NCBI GenBank assembly: GCA_030141605.1
Contig: JAQGDQ010000051.1
Location: 310,001-374,000 of the forward strand
Source: Tubiluchus corallicola
Lineage: Eukaryota; Animalia; Priapulida
Length of the DNA stretch: 64,000 bases
Reading direction: 5' to 3'
In this document: positions 18 through 43,400 of the stretch, in pieces
Layout: every line of letters begins with the position of its first letter
How positions within the stretch are numbered: position 1 is the first letter of the stretch
Position numbers and translations under genes: made by a program
The notes under the pieces: generated by a model
The model's input: the letters and a program-made list of their open reading frames with translations, nothing else
What the model was told of the DNA's origin: nothing
Database searches by the model: none

Positions 18-1036
18 CTGTCCTGTCCTGTCCTGTCCTAAGCTTGTTTCAGCTTAGTCTGTTCTGATCTGTTCTGCAGTCTATGGTTGGTTGTTCGTCC
101 TTCATAGTCGAAGAGGACCATGACTTCATTCTGACATCGTAGGATGGGTACGGAGGTGGCTTGTAAGCACGACTCCCGCTGAGAACCCCCTCCTGCAGTG
201 AGGACATGAGAACGGTGTACCTTGATAGGCATTGTGTTCTCTGTTTTTTCGAAGCTGTCTTTTCTCCTGTCTAACTTGGATGCGTCTGGACTCATAGTTG
301 GTCACTCCCAATAGGGACTGCCAACGACATCTTCCCAGGAGTCGACACCGATGTTGCATTCTTTCAGGCTGGCTTTCAGGGTGTCTTTGTATCTTTTCCG
401 CTGCCCTCCAACCGACTGTTTCCCTTCTTTCAGCTCGCAGTACATGTGTCTCTTTGGCAGACCATGATCTTCAATACGCCGAACATGGCCAGCCCATTCC
501 AGCCGTGCTGCCCCAAGCATTGCATGAACACCGATGGACTGCTCTCTCCCGAGGACCCCAGCGTCCGGCACAAAGTCCCGCCAGCCGATCCCGAGGAGTC
601 ATCTCAGACAATGCAGGCGGAAGGAGTCCAGTTGTCCGGCGTGGCGACCACAGACTGTCCATGACTCGCAGGCATACAGCAGAGATGGAATGACCACAGC
701 ATGGCAGACCCCGAGTCCAGCCGATAGGCATCCAAATTTAGCCATGATCTCCCAGAGCCCCCCACGAGACACGGTGCCGAAGGCCTCAGTGAGGTCAACG
801 AAGGCTGTCAGCAGGCCGACATTCCGTTCTCAACATTTTTCTTGCAGCTGCCGCACTGCAAAGACCACATCAACTGTGCTGCGTCCCTGTCTATATCCAC
901 ACTGACTTTCAGGTAGGAGATCTTTCTCTAAGTGTGCGTTTGAGACGATCTAGCAGAAATCTTGCCAGGATTTTGCCAGCAATCGATAGGTGTGAGATGC
1001 TCCTGTGATTGTCGCACTGCTGTCTGTTTCCTTTCT
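18..1036 (-). mobile_element. RTE-clade non-LTR retrotransposon, 5'-truncated, internally deleted, A>G hypermutated
   Basis: Minus-strand translation KGNRQQCDNHR..AGKILAR..LPESQCG..RQLQEKC..FVDLT.AF.TVSR.GLW..MAKFGC joins at about 727 to AVVIPSLLYACESWT..WAGHV..GGQRKRYKDTLKASLK, then a CxxC..H..H tail and a (GACAG)4 terminal repeat at 18-37. Confidence 0.9.
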
Positions 1037-2029: not shown

Positions 2030-3165
2030 CCCCAATTAATTATAAGGCCAGGGACATGATTCTGTTCACCTGCCTATGCCAGAACTCCCTACTCACTGCA
2101 ATGCCCCAAGTGCATTTATTTCTAAGGATCAGGGCTGAAGTGTTTAAATCTTTCTGTCCAAAATCTAAATATGTTAACATTTGTCCTCCTGCAGGTTTTT
2201 TAGCTGGTTCTATGGCTTGTTGAAGAGCTATCTTTACTGGAATATCATCAGGTAGTCTAAGCATATGCCCATATCTTAAACGGCGTCTTTTATTTTTCTT
2301 GTCCAAGGTTCTTGTTTTATTTTTTCATATAGATCTTTGTTTGAGATTTTCTTTGGCCATCTGATACCCAAAATGCTTCTGTAATTTCGCCTTTGAAACG
2401 CATCGATTATAGCTTTATGATTAGCTTTTAATGTCCGTAGCTCAGAGTTGTACAGAAATGCAGTTTCAACTAAGGCTGAGAATATCTTAATTTTTGTTTC
2501 CAAAGAAATCGTCCTATTTCAAGTAAGCTGATAATGCCATTATCTTCCGTCTTGATATGTCGTCTTCTGTTGCTAGCAGACTACCGAAATACTTGCATGT
2601 TTGCCGTGATTCATCACCATGGTGTGTCATGTGAAACTCTTCAGTTTATTTTTGTTTACTACGAGATAAATTTTGTTCTGTTTCTCTTCTATTGAGTTTT
2701 TTATTTCATCTATTTCTTCTTTGTTTCTTGTAATCTATGCCACATCATCAGCATACTGCATCGGTATAGTAGTTGACATACTTTGTAGAGAGCTGTAACT
2801 GTGTTCTTGTCTTACTTCATTTGGTATTAATTCAGGATCAAGAATTGTGTAATTGTGATCTTCTAGGTCTTTCAACTTTATCTTCACTGAGAGCTATGGC
2901 AAGATATAAAGTAAAAAGTACAGGGCTTGGGCAGTCACCCTGAGGTACTCCTTTGTTTGTAGAGAATTGCTGACTCAACTTCCCTTCACACCTGACTTGA
3001 ATTATATGTAACAGTGTAGTAGATATACTAGTAGATATACAATCTAACACTATACTTATGATGTATGTTTCATCAGGCTCAAGGATTTCTTCCAGACAGC
3101 AAAACAGAATTTTTCTCCTAACGCAATCAAAGACCTTTGACATGTCAATCATGAGAATATATATT
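2030..3165 (-). mobile_element. Decayed RTE-like non-LTR retrotransposon (second family), RT and C-terminus
   Basis: IDMSKVFD, KGVPQGDCPSPVLF, QYADDV, KYFGS, TKIKIFSALV..FLYNSE, ILGIRWP, RRLRYGHMLRLP across broken frames. Confidence 0.85.
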
Positions 3166-3499
3166 CTACACAATATATGTACACAAATCAAACGTGCAAA
3201 AAACGCATTTAGGGATTAATTTGTAATCCTTCGATCTTTGTCTCCATACAGAAAAGCAAATGCCATTTTAGGAATAATTTACAGAACATTTTATAACAAT
3301 CATACATGTATCATAATCACACTTTACGAATCAAGAGCTCACTCAATCCTATTACTTTTAGTAGTAGCAGTAGAATATGTTGCTGATATATACAAATTTA
3401 TGGTAAAACCTATCACCGATTATGCAGACGTAATAATGTTTTCTTTATCACATGATTTACTTCATAATTTTCAGCTTATTGTCACTACTTTTTTTTACT

Positions 3500-4890: not shown

Positions 4891-6426
4891 CCTCCTTCAA
4901 TATTATTATTTCACTTTATTGATCTCTTGTCCTTGATTGTAGCAAAAATCTCATTTTCAGGAGATCAAGATACAACGTTAATAACGTGTCAGTGGCACTT
5001 TTTAAATTCTGCTGCTCTTTTTTACATTGTAATACTTGCAATATGGTATTTATTGTCACTTAATTGTGCAGTTTATTATTTGTTTTCAGACATTCTGCAG
5101 AGATCAGTGTTAAATGTACAATAATATGTATTGTTCAAGATTTATATTCAACACCTGTAAATTTGCTGACAGTTCCCTAGTTATGCCTAACTGTGCATGT
5201 GGTTCAAAGATGAACGTTTCTTGTTACACTGTTGGAACTACACTGTTATTGGAACAATGATGTTTGATAAATTGATGCCAACATTGTCACTTGTAAATAT
5301 TGACATTGTTAGACTGTGCAACAATGCTAACCATTACTTACTAAAATTATTACTTGTTGGGGATGAACAGTTAAGTTATGAATTAAACTGTAAAATCGTT
5401 CATTTAATAATAATTCAGTATAATAATATTTCTCTATTTGTGAAAATACTAATGATTTATATCTTCATGATTGATGTAAGAGTACTGCAGTTTCGATTTG
5501 CTTACGTTTTAATTAATGTGTTCTTAGATGCGACTTGCCATTGTACTCTGTAACTGTAGTATTTAAATGATAAACATGAATTGAATTGAAACTTACATAT
5601 AGCCTTATCGCAGCTGTAGCCTTATTTGAGCGATGAGTTCTGAAATTGCCATCAATTTTCATACTAGTAATTTTAATACTTTTTTTATTTAATGAAGTCA
5701 TATTAAGTGAATCCCTTGAGAAATTTGTTCTGGCCAACTAATACTATTAGTAATGCTAGACAGGCTAAAAAAAATTCTAAAAAAAATGAGAGGGTAGCCA
5801 TTTCTTGTAACTCGTAATGTCTAAGATAATGAAGGTCTGAGAAATTCCAACTGTCATAAACTTTGATATAAACTTTATTTTTATTTCTTATGAACATGCT
5901 TTGCCAAGCTAACCTGTGGTTCAGTTTTCTATCTGAAAAAATACACGAAAAATAGTGCAAAATTCAGGTTCATCATGAGTAGTTTTTCTCGAAACTGAAA
6001 AAGATAAATGAGTTGAATGAGTTAATCAAAGAATTAGTAGGAATAACTTTTTCACATACACCTAGAAATAGTTCACAGAGGTGGAGTGGAATTTCATGTC
6101 TTCTCAATTCCTCATTGTCAGATTTTTTTGCTGTCCTGCTTAGATTTGAATATTTTTATCGTGTTACTATAGTGTGAATCAGAGATCTTCGACATTTGTT
6201 ACTGTGTTTTTCTTTGATTACTGTGAGTTTGTTAATATAAGTGAGCCAAATTACTAATTAGGAAAAATTAAGGTAGTTTATAGACAAATTAATGAAGGTT
6301 TTTCAAGTTGCTCGAGTATCTCTTGATACCATATTTTTTTGGCTATAGCAGGTTTTAACAAGTTTAAATTGTAACTGTTAATTATTTGCAGTGTTTGCTT
6401 GAATTCATACGAAATATCTTTTCTAG

Positions 6427-9042
6427 CACTTAGTATTGGTACAAACTTTCCGGCTAAACAGTCGACTACACTTCCTGGTAGTTCAGCTGAATTTGGTAAT
6501 GATCAGATAGCAGTTTTTTCTGATGGTTCTCTCTCCTGTACACACACACGACCAGAAAAAGAACCGTGGTGGCAGGTGGACCTTCTTCAGTTGTATGATG
6601 TTGTTGTTGTTAGCCTTGTTAACAGGCAAGACAAACTAGGTAAGTTGCTAAATATTATTTCTGCAGCTTTTCAATTTTTATTCTTTAATATCACTTATAT
6701 ATTTTGCTTCTGAATGTACATGTTCACAGTATTCGTTTAAGCAAACGATATGTGGCATAGAGCTAGTTGTACTTGCATTTTGTGAGATCATTCTACATTG
6801 AATATAGCTAATCTGATCTCCTACTCTTAGTCATATTAGGTCAGTTTGTATTGCAACTGGTTTTTGGCATTTTTACTGATTTTACTGTAACCATCGAATT
6901 GTAATTTTAATTTTTGTCACTTTAATACTGTATTGCTTATTAGTAGGTTTCCATGTCAACAAAACTAGTTGACCATTAATTAGTCTGTATCTATCATGCA
7001 TGTATCAACGTAACTTTTATTCCATGTTGACCTTTTCTAATGTCACTATATTTAGATGAGTTCTGTTCGTTCCAATCTGGTCGGCTCTTCCTAGATGCCA
7101 GAGTATGGTTCAAATGCCATTAACAATTTAAGTTTCGGAAAAATGCATAAAACAACTTGAGTTAATATAAAAATTTCAGCAACTTAACCAAAAGTTTAGG
7201 AATGTAGTGTTGCTCACAGCAGTGAAATGGCTTATTTGGAAATTGGCGAGTAATTCATAGGAGCTCGATGTACAGCTTCCAAAACCTAGTTTTTAGCTAA
7301 TATGTTTTGCTTTATTTGTTCCTTTGGCTGTTAGATAAGTTTGCACTTGTCAATTGTCATTGTCATGTTCGCTTTTAATAATTAGCAAGTTATGTTAATT
7401 ACCAATTCAGGAAATGCATTAAGGGATTTAGAAATCAGGGTTGGAAATAGCACAAGCGTGAAGGAGAATGTTTTGTGTGGCTCACACCGGAAGCCGATAG
7501 GTATGATATTTTATTTCATGGTATTACAAAATGATTGGGTTGTTATATTGCTGCTATTCTAATCCACAACTTTTGTGACTCTGAGATTTGTAAAAGTAAA
7601 ATCTGCATCATTTATTGTTCAATGTATGAAGAACTCTTTGATTATTATTTATTTGATAATTTTACTTCCTGACATTTTTTACAAGCTCACATAACACAGT
7701 ATCAAGTAATAGCAAATGAAAATTAAAAATCTTGTTGTTCTGTACACTTCTTGCCTAGACACCTTTAGTACTGCTTTTTGTCTTAAAAACACTAAACTGG
7801 TATTCAAATACAGTAACTAATTATCCACTGTTTTATCTAATAGTAAGCCTGAGAATTCAAATATAATTGTAGTGACATACTTTCTGTAAGTGAGGTATGA
7901 CCTGTCCATTTATTTATAGTTCTTTCTTTATATGATGCCTCGTCACCTCTCGTCTGTCTTCTCATTTTCTCTACTTATTCAGTTCCTGTACAAATGAGTG
8001 CTATGAAAGATGCTAAAAGCTCAGTTTATTATTAAAAATACATGAATAGTAGTGTATAGGAAGTTTAACAGATTTGCTGTGGATTAAGAAATACAAATCG
8101 GTCTAACAACTGTAGATAGATAATCTTTTTGTCATTTCCCTTAACTTTGCAAGTATTTTTTCAATGGGATAAAGAGGATTAGGTGCATCTTTATGTTGCT
8201 GTTATATTATTCTTCTTGTATAGAGAATAGGTATATTTTTAAGACCTTTCAGCATTGTGTTTTGTTGTTACATTATTACTTAGAGTACAATAAGATAAGA
8301 ATTTGTTATGCTTTTTGGTAATCATTTATCACAATTTCTTTTGGCTCATTAAACATTAATGCAGTACTAAAATGAACAGCGACCCCGCATAGGGAAAAGC
8401 TGAGAAGAAGAAGAGCAGTACTAAAATAAACATGCAAAATACATACGAATGTACCCAAGATTAAAACAATCATAAAATGAGTTAAACAGTTGCCCCGTTC
8501 ACCTGGGCCAATACCAGCAGAGTAAAATTAAATGATACATCATAGAAACTAGAAAACTGATTATCACTTGAACTGTCTTACTGCACTTGGAATAAAAGAG
8601 TTCAGAAATCTATTTGTTTTACAAATAAGGCTTTTATACCTGTCAGAACTCGGTTTTTCAAAATTTGATGCAAGAGGATGGGATGGGTCATTTATATTAC
8701 ACTTTGACATTTGGTTGTTTTTTCCATAAAAAGATCTTCCAGTGTAAATATTGAAGTACCACAGACCTTACCAGCAATACCAGTATTTTTATTTAAAAAA
8801 TACATGTCATCATTAGTAACATTGTAATAATTTCTTATGTTGTCCTTGTGCATAACTAAATCTGCAAAGAGCATTAATTTTTATTTCTTTTTCTTCATTT
8901 TTAGGTCGAGGTGCAGTTGTAGATTTTCGTTGTGAAAAAGCTATAAGGGGTAGATTTGTCAGCGTGCAAATTGCATCAGAAGACCAGTCATTCACAACCA
9001 ACGTACTAAGTTTGTGTGAAGTTTTTGTGTTTGCTACAGGAG
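6427..9042 (+). CDS. F-type lectin (fucolectin/FTP) domain, 3 exons
   Basis: Exons 6427-6639, 7411-7500, 8905-9042, all phase 1. Motifs AKQSTT, SCTHT, PWWQVDL, NRQD, LRDLEIRVGN, LCG, C..AIRGRFVSV, LSLCEVFV. Confidence 0.9.
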
Positions 9043-12000
9043 GTAAATAGTAAACAAAATTTAGCTTTATAAATTATTCAGAAATAGTGTTTAACTTTTG
9101 TGATGATATTAATGATAGTAATTGTGATCTTTTATAGAATCACTTGCTGTTCTGAAGTATTTTTGTTAAAGCATGAGCACTTAGATGCTTGGACTGCTAA
9201 TCGATTTTATATCTTTGAAATAAAACTGTTTTAAAGGGGAATTGCAATAAATCAAATTTAGAAATGCTTTGTGTTAGATAAACCTGAAAAACTTCTTAGG
9301 TCTAAAAATATGACATTGTGACTGTTTCTAAAATACTTAATTTTGGAACATAATTGGCATTTTGTCCTGAAATTTAATATTGCATGTTTTTGGAAATTGT
9401 CACTGTCAATTTTTATCTCGGCCATTGGACCTCAGTTCCAATGGAACAATGGGAATGGTTCATTGGAACAATTTCATTTCCTTGACAGAGTTTAGGCATT
9501 CACACCTCGATCGACTCAAAGTCTCATCTTGGTGTACTGCAATAACGATCTGTTTAAGTAGACTCTAAGAGCTGGATACAGGCTCGCAGAATGCCAACTG
9601 TGTGCAAATGTTTTGTTGTTTAAATTTACCATATATTTCTGAAATTTATGCTTTGTTTATGTTTCAGTGCCTCCTGAACAAAACTGTCCATATTTTAATT
9701 ATACACTGCCATTGACTACAAGTTTTGATGGAAAATGCTACAGCTTTTTCCGTGTGTCAGAAAACGGTTGTACATGGAATGATGGTAGAAATGATTGCTC
9801 TGCTAAGGGAGGACAATTAGCAGTCATTCAGAACCAGAAGACACAACTTTTTTTAAAGTCACAATTGGAAGGACTTGATCGCATTAACCAAGCAGCAGAC
9901 AAATATTTCATAGGTTTAAGAACCAGTGATATTCATTTTAAAGAATGGATTGATGGTAAATGTTCATATTTGATATTTTTGGAAGCTACCATTTTTTTGT
10001 TAATTCAGGATTTTTTCTTCAGTCCAAGTGCCAGGGTAATGTGCTTCTTGAATAAAGTTATTACAAGTTAGTTTGCCTGACAAAAGGCTTGATAAAGTGA
10101 ACCTACAATTTTTAATTTTTTGAACCCCAACTTGGCTGAAAATATGGAAATTTCAAAGGTGGGGATGAGTCTTGATATAAACCAACAATCTATGGATTAC
10201 AAGTCTGGTGTTTATTTCTGTATCTGTCTCTATGCAGCCAAGTGCCAATAGCAGAATTATCAAAATAGGCCTTTAGCAGGCACTGACGAAGTAGCAGAGA
10301 ATCAGGAGATATTCATGTATAAGCTTTTATTTTTAATTGTCAATACAACAAAAAGTTTCACCGCTTACTGTAAGGCTATAACTTGCTGACAAACTATGGT
10401 GTTATTAAATAAATTATGTCCTAATGTATAATCGTGAAGTAAAAACTTATTGTAAGGCAATCTTATTTAGAGATATTAAAGCAGCATTTCCAAAGTTTGT
10501 TTAATGAGTTTAACTTTGGATTTGATTTTGTGTTTGTAACTGTGTATTCAGGCATCTGATCACAACGGGCACTTTTACTGCTACAGGTAGTGTAGTGAAT
10601 TTTACAAGTTGGAATAATGGGCAACCCGAAGGTATTCATGGTGATCGATGTGCAGTATTAGATTCTACAGTTGATTGGAAATGGAATGTCGAATCATGTG
10701 AAAACAAGTTAGAGTTTATCTGCATGAAAGGTAAGCAGCTACATCATTGGGAAATAGCTACATTATCTGATGATTAAGTAAGCAAGGCTTACTCATTTTT
10801 AATTTTTTATTAATTTACTAAATTCTGGCTGATAGCCCATCTACTGATTGCATATCAAAACTATGGAAGCCATTATGAACAACGGGTATAGGTCATGCAT
10901 AGCCTTTGTCACCTCAAATTCACATGTATCACATTTTTTAACCTGAAACTATTGCTATTATTTAGTTGAATCATTTTATGCTTTTTTTAGTGATTATTTA
11001 GTGATTTTATTTGTGCTAATCAGCATCGTGATTGAATTGAATTTTTGGGTGAATAGATTTTGAGGCATGCATTCGTCCTCGAAGATATCAACATGTTCGG
11101 ATGGTTGGCGATGATTTTTCTGTTAATAGCAAAGTATCATTTGAATGTGAAGAAGGCTATGAGCTTATTGGTTCACGTGGTGCCACTTGTTTGCCTAATG
11201 GATTATGGGATGCAGAGTCACCCGTATGTATAAGTAAGTGATCTTTGATGTATTAATTAAAATACTCAATACTTTTTGTTTCATTTTGGCAACTTTTGTA
11301 ATAATAAGTGTGGAAGAAAACCAGAATCCTAGGTGTCTGTATAAGTGTGGCTATAAGTGGTGTAAATGATGTACTATGTCTCGATAAATTTGAAGTTATT
11401 TTTGTTGTAAAGCAAAAGAATGAACAACTGAATTGATTGTGTATTAATAGCTACTTTTTTGGAATTTTTTTAAAAGTTTATTTTTTCCTTGAATACATGA
11501 TACTTATATGTTATTTCCATTATAGTCCAAATGCTAGTAAAAGTGAAATCACAAAAATTAAAATACACAGAGACTATTAAATTTGCTGCAGATTATTATA
11601 CAGTAAACTAAGATTATGTACAAATCAAATAATAATAAAAATGTGTTAAAACTTAAATGTACTATAAATCTTTGACTAATATGATAGTAATGTCATAAAC
11701 AACTAATCATCAATTAAGAAAATACAAATGAAACAAAAGGATAAAAGCTATGTATGTTAATATATTGTAGAGTGCTATAAGTTATGAATTATTGTATGAA
11801 TTAAGAAACTAATGTGAAATCCAGATTGTAAAAATTGTAAGTTTAAAAGATATTGAATAGACAAAAAAAATCAAAGCACAAAAAATCACCGATGCTTATG
11901 TATACAAAATTTGGATAAGATCAAATTTGTACAGAAAGACTAAAACACAGTATAAACCTAAAGAAAAACTAAAAGTAATCTAAGATCTATAATAATTATT

Positions 12001-15000
12001 TAAGAGCACTATGGCTTAGAAATCTATAGTATTCTAAAATGCACTTATAATCCTAAAAAATCTGAAGTCCATCTAGAATTTGTAATGGTTATTTATATTA
12101 AAAGCAATATATATTCGACTTACTTAAAGTGTTTGTAGCAAAGCAGTTTTAAGCTGAGCTTCTGATGAATTAGACCTATTATTAGCATTGGCATTATTGT
12201 ACAATATTGCTCTAGAATATTGTAATATTGCCTTTCCAGAGTCTGTTCTTGGTTTTGATAATAAAAGTTGGCCTCCTTCCGATTGTCTCATGTTATGTTG
12301 GGTAATTTTCCTATTAAACATTTGTTTTAATTCAGCTGGCATTGAATCACATGTTTCAATCCAGTGTATCAAAAGAGTTTTTCTAAAATCTATATACTTC
12401 TCCATAGGAATTACCTTGGCCTATTTTAATCTTTCTTCTACATTGTTTATCATCTCACTCAGAATTATTTTAGCCGATTTGCTCTGTAAATTACAATTTT
12501 TTTAAATCTTTTTTGTTGCGACTGTTGCCCCGTATTATACAGCAGTATATCAAGTGGAGTAGTATAAAGGCATTATACAGCATTTTTGTTACTGTTGTGC
12601 TTAAATATGGCCTGGCTCTTTTTTCAATGATTTTTCGTGCGATTTTGCCTCTGAGTTTTGAAATATGACTATGCCAAGTAAGATGTTGATCGAGAATAAC
12701 TCCTAATAGTTTCTCCTGTTCTACTTGTTTTAGGACAGAATCTTCAATCATTATGCTTAAATTAGATTGTGTGGCACGTGCCAGCTTTTGGGCACTACAT
12801 GTTTTGGACACTGACATATTTTATTAGCATTGGCTTGCAGTTAAGATTTTTGTCTTCAATGTATGCAGTACTGTCATGTGCATACATTGCAGTTGAGCAG
12901 TAATTGATATTTTTAAGACAAATCATTAATTTGGAGCAAAAACAACAATGGGCCTAAAATTGATCTTTGCGGAACTCCTGATGTAATGAATTCGGCTGTT
13001 GACTGTTCTACTCCAATTTTAACTATTTGGCATCTATTGGATGGGTATGAATTGTACCATTTATGAGAATCACCTCTGTTGCCATACATTTATAATCTAA
13101 ACAATAATATGTCATGGTTTGTACATTACATCAAAAGCTTTTAGCAAATTCAGATTAAAACACGAGTAAAACAGCTATTATCTATATTGCCTAACCAGTC
13201 ATCAATAATACCTGCCAGGGCTGTTTTACAGCGATAGTGCTTTCAAAACCCTGAATAAAAGCTTGCAACTATCGATGTAACGAGTTAGGGTTAGCTATTA
13301 ACTCATCAGCTACTAATGCTTCCAGTTTTGTAAATTGGGGTTACTCTTGCAGTTCTCCAACTATCTGGCATGAAAACTGAATTAAAAGATCTGCTGATTG
13401 TTTGAAGTGAAAGCTTTAACATTTGAACACTTATCCCATCTAGGCTTACAGCTCTGTGAATTTTCGTAATGATTTCAGTTACATTTTGTACTGTTGCTAC
13501 AGGTAGCACAAAAACCAAATCTGGCATCTGAATATCGTGTTTGTATGGCCTAAATCATAAAGCTCTCACATTCATCATTTAGTGCATTCCCACTGTGGGA
13601 AGCTACATTAATAAAATAATTATTAAAAGCTTTAGCCATGTCACATAAGTTAACTAAAGTGTTCCTGTTAATACGTATTTGAGATGGTATTACACGTTTC
13701 CTAGTGGGTAGCAACTTTTTCAAAGTTTCCCAAAGCTTTGTTGGATTTCTTAAGGAATCATTAATAACATCTTCAAAGAAAACTTGTTTTGCTTTTCCCA
13801 CTTTCTTCATAATGTTTTTCGTCGCTTGCCTAAACAGAGTTACATACTGAGCTTCTGGATTAGTCTTAACCTTTTTGTCTGTAACTAATCCGAACTCTCA
13901 TTGCTTCTATGACGTCATCGCTCATTCACTCTGCTGTGTTATTACATTACTTTTCTTTATTGATTTATTACTTTTCTTTATGGCATTAAAATCATTTCGT
14001 GGTCACTTAACCTGGTTGTAACAATCCTGTGTTGGCATGCATGCTGGTTATCACTAATATAGATGTGATCTATAATAGTTCTTGAATTTTTTGCAATTCT
14101 TGTAGCTTCGTTAATAACTTGAGACAAATGATAAGCATCCTCCATAAAAGAAATTTGGCTTTTTCCTTCAGGTTTACTTACATCTATGTTAAATCACCAT
14201 GTTTAGTTTAGTTTAGTTTAGTTTATTCCATTTGTCATGACAAAAGGAAGTACTATGATTTCTAAATTTTCATTTACAACTTGTGATGAGTTTTTTCTAG
14301 CTTCGTCATATATTCGGCAGTACTATTTGCTGGCTTGGAAAAATTACTAATGAGAATTGGAGCACATTTTTCATGTGCTCGAATTTCGCACCAAATGTTT
14401 TCCAAATGTACGTGTTGAAGTCTTTCTGTGGGCATATTTGATGTAATTAGCTTGTAACACTAGCAATTATCTTCCCTTTCTTCCTGTTGACCGGTCTTGT
14501 CTGATAATATTGAAGCCATTAATTTGTATGCTGTCATCTGCAAGTCTCGCTCAAAACTAAGACATCAAACTTTTTCAAAACTGTCTCTGTTAGTAATTCT
14601 AGTTTGTTTACATTGTTGCTGAAATGATTAGATATTTAGATGAGCTATTTTCAGTCCTTTTCGTAAATATATATTAGTATATTCACTACATTCATGATAA
14701 CTATCATTTCCCACCAAATTGTCAGCTTCATCTTCTGCACTGCTATTATCAGCGAGTCTGTCATTATTATTGGAAAAGTCTAGCGGAACTGGTGAACGTA
14801 AATCAGGCATCTCAAAACTGCTATCATCAGCGAAATCGCGACTATAAGCAGTGTGACATTCCGTATGTGAACCTAGATTTGGGGGTGGTGTATAAGGGCT
14901 GCTTGTTAGGTTTCCCCATCTGCTGTTGGGGAATCAGCCAATCCATTCGAAAGAAAAGCCACGAAGCAACAGAAACATTATCACTAGAAGATGTGTTAGG

Positions 15001-17297
15001 CTCAGTTCCTGGTCTTGGATTAAGTTGGCAGTCTCCTACCACTATTATCAGCATGTTAATTAGATGAAGAGAACTGAAATCATTCTTGATTCATAAAAAT
15101 TGTAAAGTGTTTTTGTATCCAGAGGTAGTTAGTACTTTAAGCAGGTAGAACGTGTAGGTACAATATATATAGTTTTGAGTGATACTGTGTGGATTGTGGA
15201 TTATATGCCTCGGTGACACTAGTGTGTTCTTCAAAAGATCCCATTCACGTAATTTCTAAGGCGACAATGCAGACAAACAGCAAAGCATCGTTATTATTAG
15301 GTAAAAACTGGCCATCTTCCATACAGTGATTAACTCTCACTATTCTACCTGCCTTTTGAACAAGTGATAACAAAGCCGTGTTAATGAGGCAAAACTTATG
15401 CCGTCTAGTTTTGGCTTTTTAAGCCTGTAAACTCTTCTTGGTTTTTATCAAATAATTTTAAATCATTGCAATGCAAAATTGTATCTTTCGTCACTTAGCT
15501 CAGCAGATATTTGCATTTATGTTGGTATAAATATCATGCATATAGCATCAAAATTAACACTAAAAAACCCTCCACATTTGGGAGCACTTTAAATACACTA
15601 CTAAGTTACTAACTGATACATACAACTCGACATTTCTTATTCAGTTTGTTTTTCTAAACCTCCATAATTTATTTGAAATGAACAAATAATAGATAAATGA
15701 ACTGTAATGAACTAAAGTAATAACATTTCAGAACAATGAATATATACTGAACAGAAAATACAGCAATGGCCTCATGGTAATTTCATTTTGTATCTTATTT
15801 AAAGGTTCTGCTGTTCAAGATAGTCCTGAGAAACTTAATGGGTTTACCCAGATAGTAGGTAAGTATTATTTTCTGAATTGTAACATGTTCTTGTTTTTTG
15901 CTAAACTTTGCAAGAATTTTATTTATTTGTTATTTAGAGTTTATCAATTTAGACTAAAACATTTTTGTAGATTAAATTATCGCAGAAATATGATTTTCTT
16001 AGTATTTAGGATAATCATATGTTATGCTAAAACTAGAAAAGCTGTCAAATAGGCCCAGTGCAATGATAATTACACCACTGCTGTGAGTGAAAGCAAATTG
16101 AGGATTCAGTGACATTAAAATAGCTGAGAAGCATAGGGTCTAGCTATTTTCATGAAATATGTGGTTTAATAATTTTTTCAGTTTGGTGCAGAAATTTTTT
16201 GGTGGTTTTCTTGAATTTTTATCAGCAAAGTTTGTTTGGTTAAAATTTATTAGCTTTTAATGAATGTATCTACTGTACAGTTGTATTAAATACCATTAAA
16301 TGAAGCATTGGAAACTCCATATTTAACAGAAAATAATAATTGTGTTAATAGTAAAATCTATTCAGGTGGCCTAGAGACTGGCATTATCAACACCTGAGCC
16401 ATCATAAGTGTTTGTCCTACCATTTAAAAAATATACCAAGTTGTTTACAGACTTGTTTAATGTATACCAACTTATTTAGCATTTTTAAGTGTTTAAAAGC
16501 AGGTATTTTTACTTGGGTATTTTAAGTAAATAATTCTTGTTATTTTATATTACTTGTTATATTATATTAAGGTGAAGTTTCAGTTCGTGAAGATGTGAAA
16601 TGTCCTCAGTTGGATTTTATTTCGAATGGTGAAGCAGTATTTCTTGATGGTGGAACACAGCAAGGAGATCGGGTGCAGTATGTGTGTAATGATAACTTTA
16701 AGCTGAAAGGAAATTCTGTGAGGTTTTGTTTATTTACTGGCCAATGGAGTGGATCTCAGCCAATTTGTGGTAAGAAATGACCTAGTTATCATGATTGTCT
16801 TCGTAGTGAATAATTATAATTAACCGAGCCTGCTGATTAATTAAAGTAGCTGCTTTCCCGTCTGGGAGATTGTTGGTTTGATACTCTTACTAGTGACTAT
16901 GAAAGCTATACAAAATGTGTGTTGTTTCTCTGCTTGATGCATGAAGTTAATATTAAAAAACAGATTCATAGTAAATATTTTTATTTACATAATTTATGTT
17001 AGTTTGTTGTAGTTTGTTTTTAGTTCTTTCATTTGCATTTCGCATAATGAGCAATCACTTGACATACTTGCAATAATGAAAATTTTTAAGTAAAATTTCA
17101 ATTTGTCTTGTTAAAAGTAAATTACTTCTTTTTATGTATTATAGTATTTTATTACAGTACTTAAGAGACCAAATTTCTTGGTATCATCTTCCATGAAAAT
17201 TTGGATGTACATTAACATGATTAGTCTTAAACTATCAAAAAATGATGGTATTATTTCCCACATCAAGTACAGTCTTTCAAAGGTTCATTTCATAACG

Positions 17298-17347
<50 letters not shown>

Positions 17348-20300
17348 TTAGTTCTGCTCTATTTAAATTTTGCTTGTATTCTTCGGGCTCCACTTACCCC
17401 TCAAATTTAAATCCATTTTGTACACTGCAACGAAAATTCTTGCATAATTTTTACCGTCTTTCTAGTTTTTCTTCAATTTCTAAACAACACTTTAAAGATA
17501 GGAATCCATTAACAATTGATGATCTTGTTAAGTACAATGTTGCGGTATTTATGCAGAAACCCACTTTAATTTGTTTCTGCAATTTTTCATAAATCCTATG
17601 AACAAAAATATTAAGCATAATACAAGGTATAATGAATAATATGTGAGATATTGCAGAACCAACAATGCTAAACATTTTATTTCTTTTATAGGTCCCAATG
17701 TTTGGAATTCTGTTTTTTTTTGTAAATCAGAACAGTATCATGTCAACCTAGATTTAAGAAGGAGATGAAAACATGTCTCTTAAATACATATTAGGTGGAT
17801 TTGGTCTTCAACTTTTCTTGCTAATATTGTGTTCACCACGTTGGTTGCCACTCACAGTCCGTCCCTGTATACATAAATGGCTTATCATGCTATAGCCATT
17901 TCATTGCATTTTCAGCATTATCACCTCATCGTTTTTCTAATTTATAATTTTTTGCTTTTTTCTTCTCTTCTACTTACATACTTACACTACTTACTTACAT
18001 CCTAATTTTACCTTTATGTCATCTCTTTTCATTGCACATCTCTTTTATCCTGCCCCTAACACCTAACAACACACCATGCAATGCAGCTGGGCTTTCCAAG
18101 TTTTAGCTTTTAGCTCAGCTGCAAGCAGTTACATCATTTGTTCACTAATAATTGACAAGTAATTGCAGTAATTTTTGTTTTCAGTTTGTATAATTGTATG
18201 TAGTGTATCTTATTATGTAATTGTAATGGTGTTTTTGTCTAATAAACAAAAAATAAACAAAATTTTTATTATTATGGTTACTAATATTATTACTATGATT
18301 ATTCTACTGAAATGGGCTTTATTGTATTGTTTTAATATGTTGAGAAGTTTGTTAGAGCTTTTAGCAATTTTTTTTTACTTTACAGAGCATGTTGTTCAAA
18401 ATGATGGTTCAATTTTCTCTGTACCTGACAAAACATTGGCTTCACCTGTAGACTCTAGCTTCAGAAATCTTCCTAGTTTTGTACCTAATGAAGGTCAGGT
18501 TTTTATAGTTATTTATTCTAAGTTAGTCAGCTCAGCGGTTTTTACCCTGTAGTTATCAGCATATTAACTTCCAGTGTATAGAAAATACAGGTTTTTACCA
18601 AGAAGGTTTTGTCAAGACATAGTTATTTCTAGGTATGGTGTAAATACTGGGAGCTAATATTACTGGAACTGCCAACTTGGCACAAGCGCAGGCAGGCCTA
18701 TCAGTCATAGCTGCAGCATGTAAATGACTAAATGTGACTGCTTCTTTTACAACTGCAAGCCAGAATTTTGCTATCACAGCCACAATAAAAATTATTTATT
18801 GCAAAGCATTGTTTGTGCTGAAAAGCTCCTGCCGGCAAGCCTTCTGTCACACGTCCAATGATGGTTCTATGGTGGAAATTATTACATAAAACAAAAGTTT
18901 TTATACTAGATGATTTTAGTGCAAGCATTATAAAAATATACAATGATGTTGATATTCATGCAAATATTTCAAATTTTTTATGGATGGTTTCTTCTGCTTA
19001 CATATTTTTTATCATTTAAAATTTTTCTCTGACTCTGTGCACTAACGAACAAATCGTTTCAGTCAACATTATGTATTTTATCTGTTATCCTGACAAGATG
19101 TTTTTGCGATCATAACTGGTGTGAATTACACTTCTTTAAAACGTGGATTGTTTGTCGATTAGTTTGTTACATTCATTACGTAATGTGTATCACCAGTGTT
19201 TCTGAAAATAGAGATTTAAAATGGTTTGGCTTTGTTGATAGATGGCTTAAAATGCTGTAAACGCTTCCAGTGTAATGATTACTTGAGATGCAGCAGCGTG
19301 TCTCTTTTTATTTTAAATAACAAGTTATACATAAATATTTTACAGAAACTGCCATTGTTCCATTTGTCACAAATTGCAATGGAATGTGGTCCATGCCTCC
19401 AGAATGTAGAAATGAAGAATGTCAGTATAAAATCACTTGGTGGTTTGATGAAAGTAAAGATCTCATTAGATTTACCATCAAACAGAGAATGACAGAGCCC
19501 GAATGGATGGGAGTAGGATTTTCTAGAGACAGAAATATGGTGAAATTCTTTCTAAGTTTTTTAAAGATAGCTTTTGCAAAAATCGTCACTTCTTGCTTAA
19601 TTGTTTGTACTTCCAAGTTGAGTCTTTGTTTTGTTATTTAGTTTGCATACTTTCATATATATTACTTGGATGTGACAGTTGTGTAAAAATTATTCCTATT
19701 ATTCAAAGACAAGACTTTGGTAGCAACTATTACTTCTAATCCTTTGTAATTAAGTAAGTCAGTATAAGAATATGTCAATTTTATCCGTACACAACATAAA
19801 TTTAACTAAACTTGCATTATTAAGCTAAACTTGGTAATTATAAACACTTGTACTTATAAACACGTTATACTTGGTACTTACAATAATGTTATACTTGGTA
19901 CTTATAAACACATAATACTTGATTATTTTTAGGCTCAGTCAGATGTCATTTATGGATGGTTAAATGAAAATGGTGTTTTCATCACAGATGCATTTAGTAT
20001 TAATTATCTGCCGCCGGTACTTGATGGGAATAATGATGTTATAAATGCAAGTGCGTCTCATGAAAATGGAGTGACAACATTGCGATTTTTTCGACAGAGA
20101 AACACTGGTGATGATAGTGATTTAGCTTTTACTGATGATTCATGTCTTTATTTACTCTATCCGTTTGACAGTAATACCATTCAGCCCAACGGAATTATTA
20201 AAAAACACAGGAAGACACCAGTTGCATCTGAAAGTAAAGTGTGTATGAGGTCTTGCAGATTTGCTGAATCAACATCTGACCAAAGCCAGAATTTTGAAGA

Positions 20301-23300
20301 ATCAAAACATACTTCTGGGGTAGTTCCATTTGATCCGTTTCATTCTCATGTTGGTACTCAAGAAGAGCACAGTGGTCAGCGTTTTTATCAAGACAGAATG
20401 TTGAAAGAGTTTCCACATATTGCAGAGTCTAATTACCGTCAACTTACAGGTATAGTTGAGCAAGTGTCTGGGTTTATTAAATGATGCTTTAGATTTAAAT
20501 CCAAGCATAAATTTAAATGTAGCATGTTCTTTGAAACCTATGAATTTAGCAAAGACAAAGACAAGATTTATTTACCGTCTCTCTTTTAACGTACAACTTT
20601 GCAGCAGTGGCTATTTAGCAACTTACACAGACAACAATACAGGTAAGGACGCAACACACAAATAACAAAATAACATGTAGGGTATATGTCTTGGCTTTAG
20701 CAGCCGCTAGTCTCGAACTCAAGTCTGCGTGGTTTCGGTCCGAAATCTAAACCACTCGGCCACACAACCTAGGGCAAAAAAGTTAAGAGCATAATCATAA
20801 TGAGGACTAGACACAAGTTGCTAGGCATCAGTTGCAATGTAAGGTTTGTTTGTTTTTCATCAATAATTTTGTTTAACCATATGATTACAATAAACTTCCT
20901 AGTCTGAGTCTTACATTCATAAATGACAGCATCTTATCTTTATTATTTGGCTGCAAAAATATTTTAGTGAATTTCTTGATGAAATTTTTGCTCAAACTTA
21001 TGCTATTTTATTTGTACTTGTACATGTTATTACGCAAATTTTTACTTTCATATTTTTCAATGTTATAAGCCACTAATATAATATTTTTCCTTTTGTATTT
21101 ACGATAGTTATTCTTTTTAACTTGAGGAAGGTTAAGAATATTAGGCATTGTTTTGCTTTTAGCAGATTTTGAAGCACAAGTGAAGGTAAAAATGGGCACA
21201 GAAGTGAGAGTTATTCCTAGGCACCAGTCAGTCAGTACCCTGGTACAAGCTACACAGGTTGATGGGGAGTCTCTACCTGCTTCAGGAGAACCCAACATCT
21301 CTGGCATCATTTTTGGAGCACAAATTAATGAAGGACAGTCTAACATTAAAGGTAATATTGATGCATTCATATGGTGCACTGCAAGGTACAAGTTCTCTTC
21401 CACTGGATACCTTGTCTATTTTGCTATTGCTAAACAATTACATATTGCAACTGCAAGGTACAAGTCCTCTGTAACTGGATTTCCTGTCTTCTTTAATAAA
21501 AAATTGCAAATTGCAAGTTATTTATAAAGGTACTCTTCTGCATGTGAAATCAATCCCACCAGGTTGTATAACAACCCTTACTTTATTTTTACTGTTGGGG
21601 CTACAGTATTGGAGGAAGTATAAATATTGGATTATGCAACATGAAATTAAGTTGTTTGATATACCAATATCCGTTGCTGGAAAATGTCTTGATAAATTTA
21701 AGTGTTATTATATCAACATCTGTAATTTATTGCATGTTCTTTTTTATGTCTTCTCCCTTTTTGATGTTGTTTATGCATTAGCAACGAATAATTGAATTTT
21801 GTGTGTATTTAGAATCTAATGAATACTGAATTGATCTAGGCTTGTGAAATTCTGGTTTAGGACAGTTATTATGCATTGTGTTCACCTGGGATTAAAACCA
21901 ATTTTTGTCCTTGATTATTTTTGCTTTCTTCACATTTCCACATTTTACAAAACAGAATTTGTGTTTACTTGTTTAATTTTAGCCGAGGAATCACAAAAAC
22001 CAAGTATTGGTTCTATCAGTACAGACGTACTTGCCTATGTTGGTGACATGGTTGTTCTCACATGTGTAGTACAAAATTACGATGGAACTCAGGTATAGAT
22101 TTTCTTGCAAATTCATCTAATGCGTAATATAAATTGTAATGATAATCAGTATATTGCAAAGTTAAACTTAGCAAAGTGTATTGAATTTTTTTCAATGCCT
22201 CTTCTTGGTTTTGTCTTTTAAGTTGCTGTGAAATTACTTATACTAGCTGAACTATGTTTTTGTACATTTGCAGTGTTTAGCTATTTGATTGTGTTTTATT
22301 TTCGTGCAAATGCTACTGCAAGATATTAGCTTGCATAACAAGCACATTAACTGACTCAGTGAACATTTGAATGGAGTTGTTACAAAAAGTGGCTGACAGT
22401 CATTTAGCAAGTTTTAACTGACCTGGTCCCACAAGCTATAATTTCTTAATTGTAATAAACGAGTTAGTTCTCCTGTTTAACACTAAACAGTTTTTATAGG
22501 CAACCATCATTTTCCGTTTTCCTGTGTATAACACACAGTTAGTTGAGTAAAACGCTGCACTGATGTGAGCATATGATTACAGTGGTATTTGGAGCAACTT
22601 ACTTTAGGTTAACTTTATGTTTACGTAATAATATTTTCCTGCAAAAATTGGAAATAAGCAAAAACAAAATCACACTAAATTAAGTTATTTCACAATATAT
22701 TTTTTCTTTTGCTGCCAATGAAAATAATACTTTTTTGAGATTATAATCAAAATGATTTTTACATATGGCTTAGTGTTTTTATGAGCGAATTTCTTAAGCT
22801 AGTTATTTTATGATTTTCCTACCGAAGAAGGCTTATTTCCAAAGCTCCCAGTATGTAATTTTAACCGTGGGCAAGTACAAGAGCTGCTGATTTGTTGCAC
22901 AATATTTACTGTGTTGGTGTAATACATACTTTATGTAAAATTTTTCAGCAGTAAAGTACTGCAAGTTTTTCAAAGTTCTGCATTTAATTAGTATTAAACT
23001 TTGAACAATGTGAGGCGTTATTTCTTTTTACATTAACCCAAGTGACCTATGAGCCATGAACCATGCTTTATTTCATGTTGATATTAGGTATCTTGGATGA
23101 GGCTGAAGAATAAAGACCAGGCCGAGGGTGAACTTCTGTCAATTGCTGGAGTGTTAACCTCATTTGAAAGTCGTTACAGAATACAAATCCATGGTTCAGT
23201 GAGAGAAAAACAATATGTTTTGACCATTAATAAAGTTTTTGAATCTGATTCTGGAATATATCGCTGTCACGTACGTATTTATAATTTTTTCCTTGTTGCT

Positions 23301-26300
23301 TGATCATCTTATTTTTTAGGTTTGATTTGAAAAGGTCAAATCTAATCACTTTGTGCTGTATCTGTAACATGGTATTCTGCTGCAAGAAGAGCAGCTCATT
23401 CATGCACCACAATTCTTGGCAAATGCTGCCAAATGGTAGGAAAAACTAGCTTTTCGTTTTACTTAATTAAAATTACTATTTATGCTTATTATTTACTAAG
23501 ATTAGAAAATGAATGTTAAGACTTCAGTAAATAACACTGAAAGATTAGTGAAGGATGGTGTGGATTTAACAATGGTGTATAGTGGATTTAACAATGGTGC
23601 AGGCAGTGGATTTGACAATGGTGTGGGCAGTGGATTTAGCAATGGTACATGCTATGGATTTAACAATGATGTGGGCAGTGGATTTAATAATGGTGCAGGC
23701 AGTGGATTTAGCAATGGTACGGGTCATGGATTTAACAATGGTACAGGCAGTGGATTTAAAAAGAATGGGAAGATTAAGATTCAGTATTATGAGTTTGAGT
23801 TCAGATTTTCTTAAAACAATTATATTCTAGTAGAAATTCAGGTGAAGGTTGCATTGAGGCAGATTGTTGTTTAAGGTGATTTGTATATTGTTTAACTATG
23901 ATTAAATCAGTAAACATTAAAACTTGCTTTGGCTGTGGTCGTTGGCAACATGACATGATTGCTGCATATGAACTTTTCAGTTGATTTTATACTGATTGAC
24001 TTTTAATATGTTTAAGGTGCCTACAAAACCAGCATTAACTGCTGATGTCAGAGTCCATGTAAAATCATTAAACTGGGACAGAGAGATCCCTAGAGGTCAA
24101 ATATTATCAAGTAAGAATTTATTAAACATATTTAGTGGTTAGACAAGAAAAGTGTATTGTTAACTTTTGCTGTTCTACTTGTTCTATCATGGTTCTCCTT
24201 GTTTGTACATGTTGATCATATATCCACTTGAAATAGCAGTTGAATAAAAAGATTATCAGCATTTCGGTGATTGTACTTAGAAGTGTCACTTATTAGGCAG
24301 CGCCGTTTGTATTTGTGTCAGTCCCTTTAAGTGAAATATTGTATAGATTTTGTAACAGCTGCAAGAAGTATTCTGCTTATGTTCATGCACAGGCATCCAT
24401 TTTAATTGTAGTATGTTTCAGATGTTAGCAATCCGGATAGAATAACAGAACAATTTCCTGAAGAATACACGCAACCTAGTGGTGGAAATTCTAGATTTAC
24501 TGCAAATGAAAACTTAGGTGACAAGTTTCTTGGAAAAGATCATGGTAAGTATTATAGATCTAGTTTAATCCTAAGAACACTGAGATATACAATCCTGAAA
24601 GTAGTAGAACTTGTAGTTCAAGAACAAAAGTTTTGTGCCACAATGAACATAACCTTTTTTCTGTGCATGCATGCCTTGCCACCTATTGACTAAGAAACTT
24701 AATACACCACAGTAAGTTTTAAGATTAAAAACATTTGCTACAGCAATAGCTAGAAGTAAATTGAAGTTTGAAAATAGCATCAGATTTTTACATCATAGCT
24801 GTGACTAGAAACTAAATGAAATATATTTGCTTGGCAATTATCTTAAGATAGAGAATGTGATATCATAAAGTCATGCTGTTGTGTTTATAACTGTGGGAAA
24901 AATGATAAAAGACTTTCTATCAAGGCTAGTATTTATGTAGTTTCTTTAAAGCTAAACTTTAAATCAGGAACTGAATTCTAAAAACTTGTCATCCCCAACA
25001 GTAACTCTAATTTCAACAGTTTTTCTTTATCTATTTTTTGATTCTCTGGAAATTTGCTTATTTTTATTGACATTAAATCCCTGGATTCAATAAAAAAATA
25101 ATGTTACAGTGACAATAACAATTTTACTAAAATTTGCTCTATTGATTGTGCACATGAAATTGTATAAACTGAATACAGGGCTACTTCTGCACAGTTAGAA
25201 TTATGAAAGCACAAAGACATATTGCTGATATTAGTTGTAAAAATTTGGTTTTTACAAACTAGCCACTGATAGAGTTCTATACAAGTTTGCTGCTGCAAAG
25301 TAGTAAGTAAAAATGATCTTTAATTGAAAAGGTTCTAAGCTCGAAGGTAAAGAAGAAATGGAGGTTCGTATGGGAACTGGGATCAAGGTTTTTGTTCCTA
25401 TTGATGAGACTACACCGCAAGGTAACATCATTTTTGGTACCATTTGACCAATGTTGGTTTATCAGGTCTGTTTATGTGCAATTGTAGCAAACTGCAGGCA
25501 CTTCTAATATCATAGTGAACTACTTGACTACTAGCACAGTTAATTACTTAAAAATATTACCAAAGTCATTTAGATAAAATAGTATGAATATAACACAGGA
25601 ATTTTGTATTCATTTCTTACATATTACATATTTAAAAAGTGCCAGACTTCATTATCTGGAAGAACCAGAATTATTGTTTTATGGTGGTCCAGCTTCATGA
25701 ATCATAAATGAGATCAAAGGGGTTCATTGAATAGCTAGTAATATTACATTATTAACTATACTAGCGAAATAGAAGCTAATGTTTTGGGTTACAGGATTGA
25801 GGTTACAAAAGTAATTCATCTACTAGTTTTTAAAATAGTAAATATTTTCATCTGTTAGCTATCGTGGTTGATACTTTATTGATTGATGCACTGCTGCATG
25901 AGGGTTTAATCTTGGATTTTATATTTCTTCATCATTTTGGTTATTATATTTAGCATAGCGAAAATGTAGGGAATTTGTAGCCACCTGTACTAAATGTAAT
26001 TAAATGGTATCATATTCCAGAGTTGACTAATTTAAACACTGGTGGACCTGAGCCCAGAATACTGCAGATTAGTCAAGATTCTGAAATACCATGGGGAAGC
26101 ACAGTTGAGTTACGATGTCTAATTGAGAATGCTGCTGATTTAAATGTGAGTTTATTTCATTATAATTCAAAATTTCCACTCTCTTACAGCACAAAAAGGC
26201 TTAAAATATTGCATTCTTTCCATGTGTTGTGCTGGCATTGTGCCATTGTCCTCCAAGATTTTGGAAATAGTTATCAGTGACTTTTATCATGCTTGTTTTC

Positions 26301-40440: not shown

Positions 40441-43400
40441 TATCATCATCACCATCATTATTTATTTGACTTTTTTGTTTCTTTAATAACTCACCAATGC
40501 ATAGGGCTGGAGTCATGAGGCTCACAGGTCGCTCACCCCAGGTAGGGACTTTATGTTCATGTGTAACCCATCACTGCCAGCTCAAAAGTCATGGAGTGGA
40601 CTTCACATTTTTTTTGTGAGGCTGGAGCTTCTTTTAGAGCTTTTGATGCTGGGCCACAATTTTTGGTGTGTGTTAGGTGGGGTCGATATCTAGCGTATAG
40701 CTGAGTTTGCATATAGTTGCGCCACTTGTATGTGGGAAAATTTCTTGGTATGGGGCAATAAGCGAAATCAGTGGGGTGTCGTGGATACCAAAGTCCTTGA
40801 TGAGACAGTTTGAACAGTATGATTTATGCCAAAATTGGTTGATCCCTGACTGAACTATAGGAGGTAAAAACTTGTGGTCTGAGATACAAATACTTCTAGT
40901 GTTGAGCAACAGTAGATCGTAGTATATCAAGTGAAATAGTTTAGGTGGTATGGGCCATGTCCACATTGGTTGACCCCTGACCTCGAGGTCACAGGCTGAA
41001 AGTGACAGATTTTTAGATTCTAGTTTGACAAGTTCCAATTTTGGTGTCATGGAGCACATGAAGTGAAAGGTCTTGATGAAACAAATTGGTGTGTGTTAGC
41101 CAGCATTTGGTTAACCCTTGACTGTTCACGTGTCAAGAGGTGACAACTTCCGATTTCATTTGAACTATTACTGTCAAGCACAACTGTACTTACTTATTAT
41201 TATTTGTTGGTAAGTATTTTGAAAAACATTTTTTATTTGTAAACACGAAACAAAAGCTGCCACTTAAAGCACCTCTTGTCACAGAAGCAGAATCTTACCA
41301 CAATTTTTGACTAGATCAAAAACATTTTTCATTTTAATTTTTTATGTGATATATCATTTATTCTATTGTGTAATGTGAAAATTATAAAGTTAGTAGTTGG
41401 CTAGTGTTTCTTACAGCATCAGAAACTGAAGAATTTACTGTCTTTGTCTACCCTACAGTGCCTAAATACATGTGCAAAAAATTAAATTCGCTTCAAAGCT
41501 CTTTAACTAATCGCAAAAAGCTGTTCCATTTTCTCGTTTTGGTTCCCATCTTGGGTCTTTGGAGAATCCCAGCTTTTTAAAATCAGAGGTGCACATCTAT
41601 CCCACTATACTAAATACTTGTGAAAAAGATTTTCAATTTAACTCAAAAGCCCTGCAAGAAGTTGAGAATTAATCGAAAAACTGACTGATATCCAGTGTTG
41701 TAGACTTCTTCACCAGAGATCACAAGTCACTACACTGCCATCGTTTCCCAAACTGGGCCTACCTGCTCCGTGGGTTTGATGGCCCTAGCTTGCACATTTT
41801 TGGAGTTATTAGGCGAAACATTGAAGAACAAAGAAAGAAAAAACTAGTAAACGTTTTTGACTGTGTCAAAAACTGCGGTAACATTCTACTTCTGTGACAG
41901 GACATACTTTAAACAACATGTTCTGTTTTGAATTTTCAAATAAAAATTCTTTTTCTAACTAGCTAGTGACATGTTTGTAAGTGCTGTTGTGCTTGGTATT
42001 AAAAGTTTCAGTGAAATCGGAACTTGTCACTTTTTCACCAGTGCCCCATAGATCAAGGTTCTGAAAGTCGTAACATTTCCTCCTTTGAATTCACCATGCT
42101 TAATTGTTTAGGAATTGCATTTCGTTTTAGTGAAATCGGAACTGCGAATTTTTTTAATGGTTACCAGTTCACCTTTGTCATCGAAGTTCTATGTTACTTT
42201 TCTTCGTAACAAGCACATAACGTGACCACACAGCTAATTTCTTCCCCAGTATCAGCGAGTTTCAGAAACTAGCAAATTAATTAATTTTACTGTCAATAGT
42301 ATTTTAAAAGTAGCACATTCAAACCAATTTTAAGGAAAACACAAATTAATATACTTTTGTAGAGACTAGCAAAAACCTGACAAAAGCATATATCAAAATA
42401 GTGTGAATTGAAAAAAAGATATCAAAAAGATGTGTGAGGCAGAAAGTTTTGACTGGGATTCAAACCCACAACTTTTACATGCAAATAGGAGCGCTTTTAC
42501 TCACTAAGCTATCTCGCATTTCAGTAACTACACTCACTTATTAACTGCCGTAGTGGTACACAATGCGGCGGTACACTTTATGGTCATGCGCATTGCAGTT
42601 GAATAAAATGCAGGTTTTCAAATTTGCAGCAGTTTTATTAGCGACCATTTGGGTTGATTTTACTTTCCTTTCAAACTACATGAATTTCCTTGTCACAAAA
42701 TGCAATCGATAATTACTGGTGTTGTCACTTCAGACATGTGTTTCACTCATTTATTGTGGGTGGTTATTTAAATTTGCGCATTGCTATTTTGACAATGGCA
42801 TTTAATATGTCAAACATTACATGAAGTGTGAGTATGAGAGAGCTTTCCTGAGCTTTGCAATATTTAACATAAAAAACGTAATGCCCTTTATAGTCTCAAT
42901 GATTATATATTTTTATTTCAGAAGCTTTGATATCAGCGGGCCTCGTCAGCTGAAAAAATGCTAAAACAATATGTACAAGTGTAAAACAAGAACATTAAAA
43001 CCAAAAAGTGGTAGCTAAACATCATTGATTTGAAATATAATAAGTTAAAGAATAAAAATGACTGAACGACTGCATAAGTAGAAAAACCCAGAACTATACA
43101 ATTGCTCTTGCCAGAACAGTTTTGGCAAGCAAGGATGAAAGCTTCCGAAATAAAGATATATAATCATTTAGACTATAAAGAGCATTACGTTTTTTATATT
43201 ACTTGACGTGTTTTAAAAAGTGTATTACTTTTGTGTAGGTTGTATGGTCTCGTATTTCAGCAAATTCTGCACCTATCAATATCGCAATTAATGAACAAAA
43301 ATTAATTGACAAAGATAGACTTTCATCTGCATTAAGGCGAAATGGTGGTCAATTGACCTCAACAATTTATATTGAAAACGTCGAGCCCGAGGATGAAGGC

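Follow-up and report, generated by a model that had tools for sequence, protein, structure and literature searches.

One copy of a LINE on the minus strand of the window, as we call the whole stretch of 64,000 nt that was analysed, contains a bounded tract in which about half of the readable adenines of the sense strand are replaced by guanines. It represents a real and well-supported single example of an ADAR-type scar. The copy bears the marks of target-primed reverse transcription (5' truncation, a target-site duplication (TSD) of 12 bp, and a short repeat tail), which support its origin by retrotransposition, and it probably derives from a paired LINE transcript that was hyper-edited by ADAR and then retrotransposed in the germ line. 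The duplex, the enzyme, and the order of events are what we infer from the data presented below.

The LINE copy and its surroundings

The minus strand of 84-1035 specifies the 3' half of a LINE endonuclease-reverse-transcriptase (EN-RT) frame, spread over three frames, and a short 3' UTR of about 42 nt (84-125, the ORF ending at 126) with short repeats of the AAC/AACC type at its end. Of 1455 candidates in a search with the read-through peptide, 125 proteins reached E<=1e-10, and EN+RT proteins of 1068 aa scored best. The closest relative, P0002, has a single frame of this length with PF03372/PF14529 and PF00078. In tblastn it matches the copy in four pieces (residues 552-583, 586-654, 860-992, and 998-1068), three of them with 64-81% identity and the last with 45%; only RT-side pieces are retained in the copy. 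With two in-frame TGA codons, frameshifts, and the RT core missing, the copy is dead. One of the smaller lesions is a deletion of about 20 nt with a frameshift near the 3' end (309-332), outside the edited tract, where a family contig from run X1 carries 22 extra letters and the tblastn alignment switches frame.

Since family contigs extend beyond position 1035, at which the family alignment stops, the copy was considered 5'-truncated. It is bordered by a TSD of 12 bp, an exact match without extension, whose 5' copy is located at 1033-1044 and whose 3' copy is located at 72-83 of the minus strand. The duplication begins with T in the sense of the element, and the last three bases of the 5' copy also match the family, which constitutes microhomology. 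Upstream of the duplication only three T are present, at -12 to -14; for the RTE clade, the available text of PMC6007223 describes duplications that start with T, at a distance of about 10 nt downstream from a T stretch. For truncated RTE copies, the features described are loss of the 5' end, a TSD of 6-12 bp, and simple repeats in a short 3' UTR (PMC2887409, available part). The resemblance to RTE-clade LINEs therefore includes one EN+RT frame, as seen in the relatives, a short repeat-ended 3' UTR, 5' truncation, and a 12-bp TSD starting with T (PMC2887409, PMC6007223), while the internal deletion and the A>G tract are features of the present copy. The initial annotation had named the element an RTE retrotransposon copy. 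EN-RT frame, TSD, and 3' UTR fit this designation, but the clade label derives from architecture and known motifs, and none of the homologs found carries the name RTE; the copy is thus referred to as RTE-like.

Besides this copy, the window harbors a second, more decayed LINE RT remnant of another family (2100-3215, minus strand; PF00078, E=1.6e-8), which is AT-rich. On the plus strand, exons with F5/8 type C, C-type lectin, and DOMON domains are located at 6375-20481, and Ig V-set-like exons form a long tandem array at 26000-64000. Some exon-intron blocks of the array were duplicated recently, with up to 98% identity over 300 nt, and the array may represent a fast-evolving immune or allorecognition receptor. 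These intron-split lectin, DOMON, and Ig exons suggest an animal host. The one array exon that was searched gave no homolog, and the DOMON exon gave none among longer proteins. A tandem 24-nt repeat of about 10 units (23557-23791) lies within the open frame 23506-23814 and would encode a Gly/Asn-rich repeat. MITE-like inverted-repeat elements are present in introns of the Ig array at 41127-42043 and 42865-43201, with arms of 67-128 nt that are 73-91% complementary.

Extent, polarity and context of the A>G tract

As family reference, Logan contigs from DNA runs (X1, X2, X4) with at least 80% likeness to region 150-1250 were used; run X5 yielded no contigs, which carries no weight either way. 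They represent the dominant subfamily of the LINE and not the true source of the copy, with about 4% other differences, so that a few of the A>G changes may be subfamily differences. Against this reference, C>T on the plus strand, equivalent to sense A>G in the copy, was recorded at 33, 30, and 33 places for X1, X2, and X4, respectively. The other plus-strand differences numbered 9/7/8 for T>C, 3/7/4 for G>A, and 4/5/4 for A>G. A second contig alignment, covering 430-810, listed all 26 of its rows. Subtraction from the piece counts indicates about 14 further, unlisted differences near alignment ends, of a kind not given, which were excluded from the counts; for several of these, homolog majorities suggest A>G (S at 532, Q at 580, Y at 706, K at 751), and these are likewise uncounted.

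The tract extends from 479 to 868 on the minus strand, and family letters could be read for 277 of its 390 bases. Among these, 40 of 81 sense A are changed to G, compared to T>C at 2 of 61 (Fisher p=2e-10), G>A at 2 of 60, and C>T at 3 of 75. No A>C is among the differences listed, and two A>T occur in the tract. High-depth family contigs account for 36 of the A>G sites and the loose end of one low-depth contig for the other four; if the stretch of the latter is left out, 36 of 72 sense A are changed. For 544-573 and 710-727 the family letters come from loose-end strings, with seven A>G in each, because the changes are so dense there that the alignments broke. In the dense core (499-825), 37 of 62 sense A are changed (about 60%). 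No change is seen at 12 consecutive A in 827-857; positions 865/868 and 479/463 are outlier sites. The 5' part of the copy (869-1035, minus strand) serves as an unedited internal control with 1 of 55 A listed as changed, and even if all unlisted C>T rows are placed outside the tract, the worst case is 7 of 153 (p=1e-15).

These data largely bear out the initial annotation. It had reported more than 20 A>G sites by comparison with expected RTE residues, and the real family contigs do carry A at these sites; the G letters do not belong to the family consensus, and the substitutions are far from balanced among types. Its contrast of seven sense A in 541-600, all preceded by G, with 23 in 361-420 was reproduced on recounting. 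The tract it had placed at 499-868 is indeed bounded, but its limits had to be refined to the core, the gap, and the outliers at 463, 479, 865, and 868.

The direction of change was deduced from homologs, of which 111 and 120 of 120 aligned. In codons recoded by A>G only, they side with the family residue in 22 of 23 cases, often at a frequency of 0.9-1.0, indicating that the G letters are, judged by this comparison, the derived state in the copy. Seven codons were recoded otherwise; here, four favour the family, two the copy, and one is a tie. By the same comparison, the source of the copy appears as a subfamily slightly different from the dominant contigs, the copy being ancestral at two codons. 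The A>G sites are distributed over the codon positions as 15/12/13. That CpG decayed in the family while the copy stayed unchanged was ruled out, since only 9 of the 40 sites are CpG and the homologs side with the family. RIP-like or APOBEC changes were ruled out as well, because they would be of the wrong polarity (sense G>A at 2/60).

Of 251 metagenome loci, 80 were kept, and 622 alignments among 67 of these 80 served as controls. The best excess of one substitution type per 200 columns was 3-4 in the control loci versus 19 in the copy, the latter falling to 14 if all unlisted differences count against it. No A>G cluster was detected among the related metagenome loci compared, which is a weak control, because repeat contigs are collapsed and the 80% cut-off can miss edited tracts. 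With a DNA identity of 55-62% in the 15 longest alignments, the metagenome loci are too distant to serve as reference. The A fraction of 499-730 is 0.138, compared to 0.235-0.396 in the 34 relatives covering this stretch. Among viral contigs, 23 pattern matches but no relatives were found.

The presence of the G letters in DNA was assessed with contigs, not raw reads, from runs X1-X3, which stem from one sample, possibly the source of the assembly. Exact-match contigs were found in X2 for 417-655, at a depth of 249 (unique flank 185), and in X1 for 417-613 and 696-859, at a depth of 13 (flank 14); no listed piece extends over 656-695 or 860-868. From run X3, no exact contig was obtained. The contigs thus match the assembled bases over most of the tract and, within this one sample, argue against an assembly or cDNA artefact. 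Flank-like depth and ordinary decay of the copy suggest that it was inherited through the germ line. In X4, which belongs to another study, the same LINE family with nearly the same letters over 150-1035 is present in contigs without the unique flank; X4 may come from another individual at low depth or from a related species.

Within the core, the frequency of change depends on the 5' neighbour, with 9/10 sites changed after U, 12/17 after A, 10/21 after C, and 6/14 after G (trend p=0.004; the core limits were set after the data were seen). For the whole tract the values are 10/11, 12/25, 10/25, and 8/19, respectively (p=0.016). Under saturating kinetics, the core rates for U:A:C:G are 1 : 0.53 : 0.28 : 0.24. 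This ranking fits the order U>A>C>G known for hADAR1 (PMC3113232, available text). According to the initial annotation, changes after G should be depleted, yet a strong sparing of these sites is not seen, since 8/19 are changed (p=0.60 versus the rest), as are 6/14 in the core (p=0.22). If a relative rate of 0.3 is assumed for sites after G, at least 8 of 19 changed would be obtained with p=0.006. When surviving A of the unlisted zones are added, their unlisted edits being omitted, the core values become 6/22 for G (p=0.049) and 9/12 for U. Strong depletion of upstream G is described for hyper-editing in all metazoans examined (PMC5625713, PMC9989829, PMC2873906, available sections). The 3' neighbours are uninformative, for A with 16/26 versus 24/54 (p=0.23) and for G with 8/18 (p=0.79); ADAR is described as preferring A downstream in invertebrates and G in amniotes (PMC5625713, same sections).

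Origin of the tract

That a dsRNA-edited LINE RNA was retrotransposed had been proposed in the initial annotation, and this proposal is supported by the one-strand A>G changes together with the exact 12-bp TSD. ADAR as the agent is suggested by the ranking of 5' neighbours, which fits, while the depletion of 5'-G is weak. According to the preferred explanation, the source transcript would have been partly paired with an antisense RNA or with a family fragment located in inverted orientation at another genomic site, and ADAR would have deaminated 50-60% of the A in the duplex to inosine, at rates declining from a 5' U through A and C to G. LINE proteins, probably supplied in trans or translated prior to editing, would then have reverse-transcribed the edited RNA with C placed opposite inosine, and target-primed reverse transcription would have been followed by second-strand synthesis. 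The edited copy would subsequently have been inherited and have aged through ordinary point mutation.

Candidates for the duplex partner were searched in the window. As a self-hairpin, the tract folds no better than shuffled sequences (z=+0.92), and neither another family copy nor an inverted partner was detected in the 64,000 nt by blastn, tblastn, a repeat finder, or low-stringency and three-letter searches. The latter two yielded two overlapping 18-mer matches at one place, which were taken as chance. If pairing occurred at the source locus or with antisense RNA, no partner is expected in the window. Sense-antisense pairing is a documented editing substrate in some animals (PMC9989829, available part). 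The 12 consecutive unchanged A at 827-857 suggest that the duplex was interrupted there.

Inside the edited tract, at 724-728 of the minus strand, lies the junction of an in-frame internal deletion, which had been overlooked in the initial annotation although the tract reported there straddles it. A family contig of X4 contains 635 letters where the window has 17, a net in-frame loss of 618 nt. In tblastn the corresponding gap spans residues of about 654 to 860 of the relative, corresponding to a loss of about 206 codons from the RT core. On the 3' side of the junction 7 of 8 A are changed, and on the 5' side an unchanged AAA is present at 737-739. Among the family contigs, a deleted but unedited sister was not seen. 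This leans towards, without establishing, a full-length RNA that was edited over about 1 kb, the deletion then being introduced by a template jump or by later loss. A spliced intron was considered as an alternative reading of the 618-nt deletion.

Several other explanations have to be weighed. The tract covers only about 390 of the 952 nt of the copy and has the deletion inside, and both would be explained if recombination or gene conversion had later introduced an edited, deleted cDNA into part of an unedited insertion, ADAR-edited RNA still being the source. A partial duplex, however, gives bounds without a second event, and the ragged limits (463, 479, 865, 868, and the gap at 827-857) resemble an imperfect duplex and not a clean conversion tract, which makes later patching improbable. 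Equally improbable is deamination of adenines in sense DNA paired to antisense RNA, during second-strand synthesis or in an R-loop, by ADAR or an unknown adenine deaminase. ADAR acts on DNA:RNA hybrids, the same strand polarity is predicted, and the weak avoidance of 5'-G could mean another substrate or enzyme. Yet the occupancy of about 60% in the core would presumably require DNA to be deaminated very efficiently and the hypoxanthine to evade repair. C>T is not raised (3/75), which rules out chemical deamination of single-stranded DNA.

Errors of a polymerase inserting dG opposite template T in second-strand synthesis, caused by low dATP or a Y-family polymerase of the eta/iota type, would yield a 5' T/A bias, and sites after U and A are in fact the most changed. 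Pol eta, too, prefers A preceded by T or A, and misinsertion of G opposite T is known from pol iota. But with half of all A changed, no A>C, and two A>T, the tract is far above known error rates, and unchanged stretches flank it within the same insertion; polymerase error is therefore very unlikely. Finally, the copy might descend from a rare G-rich subfamily or reflect an assembly or library artefact, so that no burst occurred in it at all. Other sites of the copy likewise depart from the dominant family, and the supporting runs represent one sample, in which X3 lacks an exact contig. Against this stand the destruction of near-invariant residues (22/23), the unbiased codon positions, the exact contigs of flank-like depth in two libraries, and the fact that no sister contig, whether deleted or rich in G, was seen; if a non-autonomous G-rich subfamily existed, the same event would merely shift to its founder. 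Subfamily descent or artefact is largely refuted already and hardly credible.

RNA editing is normally not inherited. An ADAR-type scar in a target-primed insertion would show that edited LINE RNA can complete retrotransposition in germ-line or stem cells, a process that turns RNA edits into DNA mutations. Whether, and how often, ADAR restricts LINEs by editing becomes testable from genomes alone, and repeat copies carrying sense A>G clusters can mislead both the calling of RNA edits and the dating of repeats. The single dead copy itself likely has no function of its own. A bolder and rather doubtful possibility is that in animal germ lines ADAR mutates LINEs heritably under the guidance of dsRNA, in which case a duplex of about 1 kb would have been edited and a jump of 618 nt during reverse transcription would have left the copy hypermutated and gutted. 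If true, such scars could be dated and would preserve, like fossils, traces of dsRNA in the germ line and of the specificity ADAR once had, which in this copy shows an unusually weak avoidance of 5'-G; they would also be an invertebrate counterpart of APOBEC restriction.

Relation to known hypermutation systems

In the literature searched, which had most subscription papers outside its scope, no ADAR scars in germ-line LINE copies were found, and the available parts of PMC13034634 and PMC10877575 contain no precedent for one. An A>G excess is reported for Mtv61, in which the authors found no ADAR context (PMC12548423, available text).

Dense A>G clusters in young repeats, with 5' U and A favoured, are also produced by hyper-editing of repeat dsRNA in metazoans (PMC5625713, PMC9989829, available sections). 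There, differences between RNA and DNA are observed with strong upstream-G depletion, whereas the present change is found in DNA and the depletion is weak. The APOBEC-edited LTR retrotransposons described by Knisbacher and Levanon (PMC4866542) and Zaranek et al. (PMC2873906) likewise carry the scar of a deaminase, fixed in the germ line, that abolished the coding capacity of the element. As far as the available text of PMC4866542 goes, that screen considered LTR elements only, with LINEs set aside, other mismatch types were very rare, and invertebrates were at noise level. The APOBEC scars are sense G>A changes, arising via C-to-U on the cDNA of vertebrate LTR elements (PMC4866542, PMC2873906); in contrast, the present copy is a LINE with sense A>G, and G>A is found at 2/60.

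In retroviral proviruses, too, clusters of A>G confined to one strand have become permanent in the integrated DNA once the RNA template was reverse-transcribed (PMC8586724, PMC8025556, available parts). ADAR-attributed hypermutation of this kind was described in RAV-1 and avian leukosis virus (cited in PMC8586724), and A-to-G clusters in U3 of bovine leukemia virus comprise at least seven changes in about 70 bp (PMC8025556). These proviruses belong to exogenous retroviruses in somatic or cultured cells, whereas the present copy is a non-LTR, target-primed insertion that is apparently inherited and contains at least 40 changes over 390 nt. Known so far are ADAR-type A>G changes in exogenous retroviruses and APOBEC scars in germ-line LTR elements; what appears to be new is the germ-line LINE copy.
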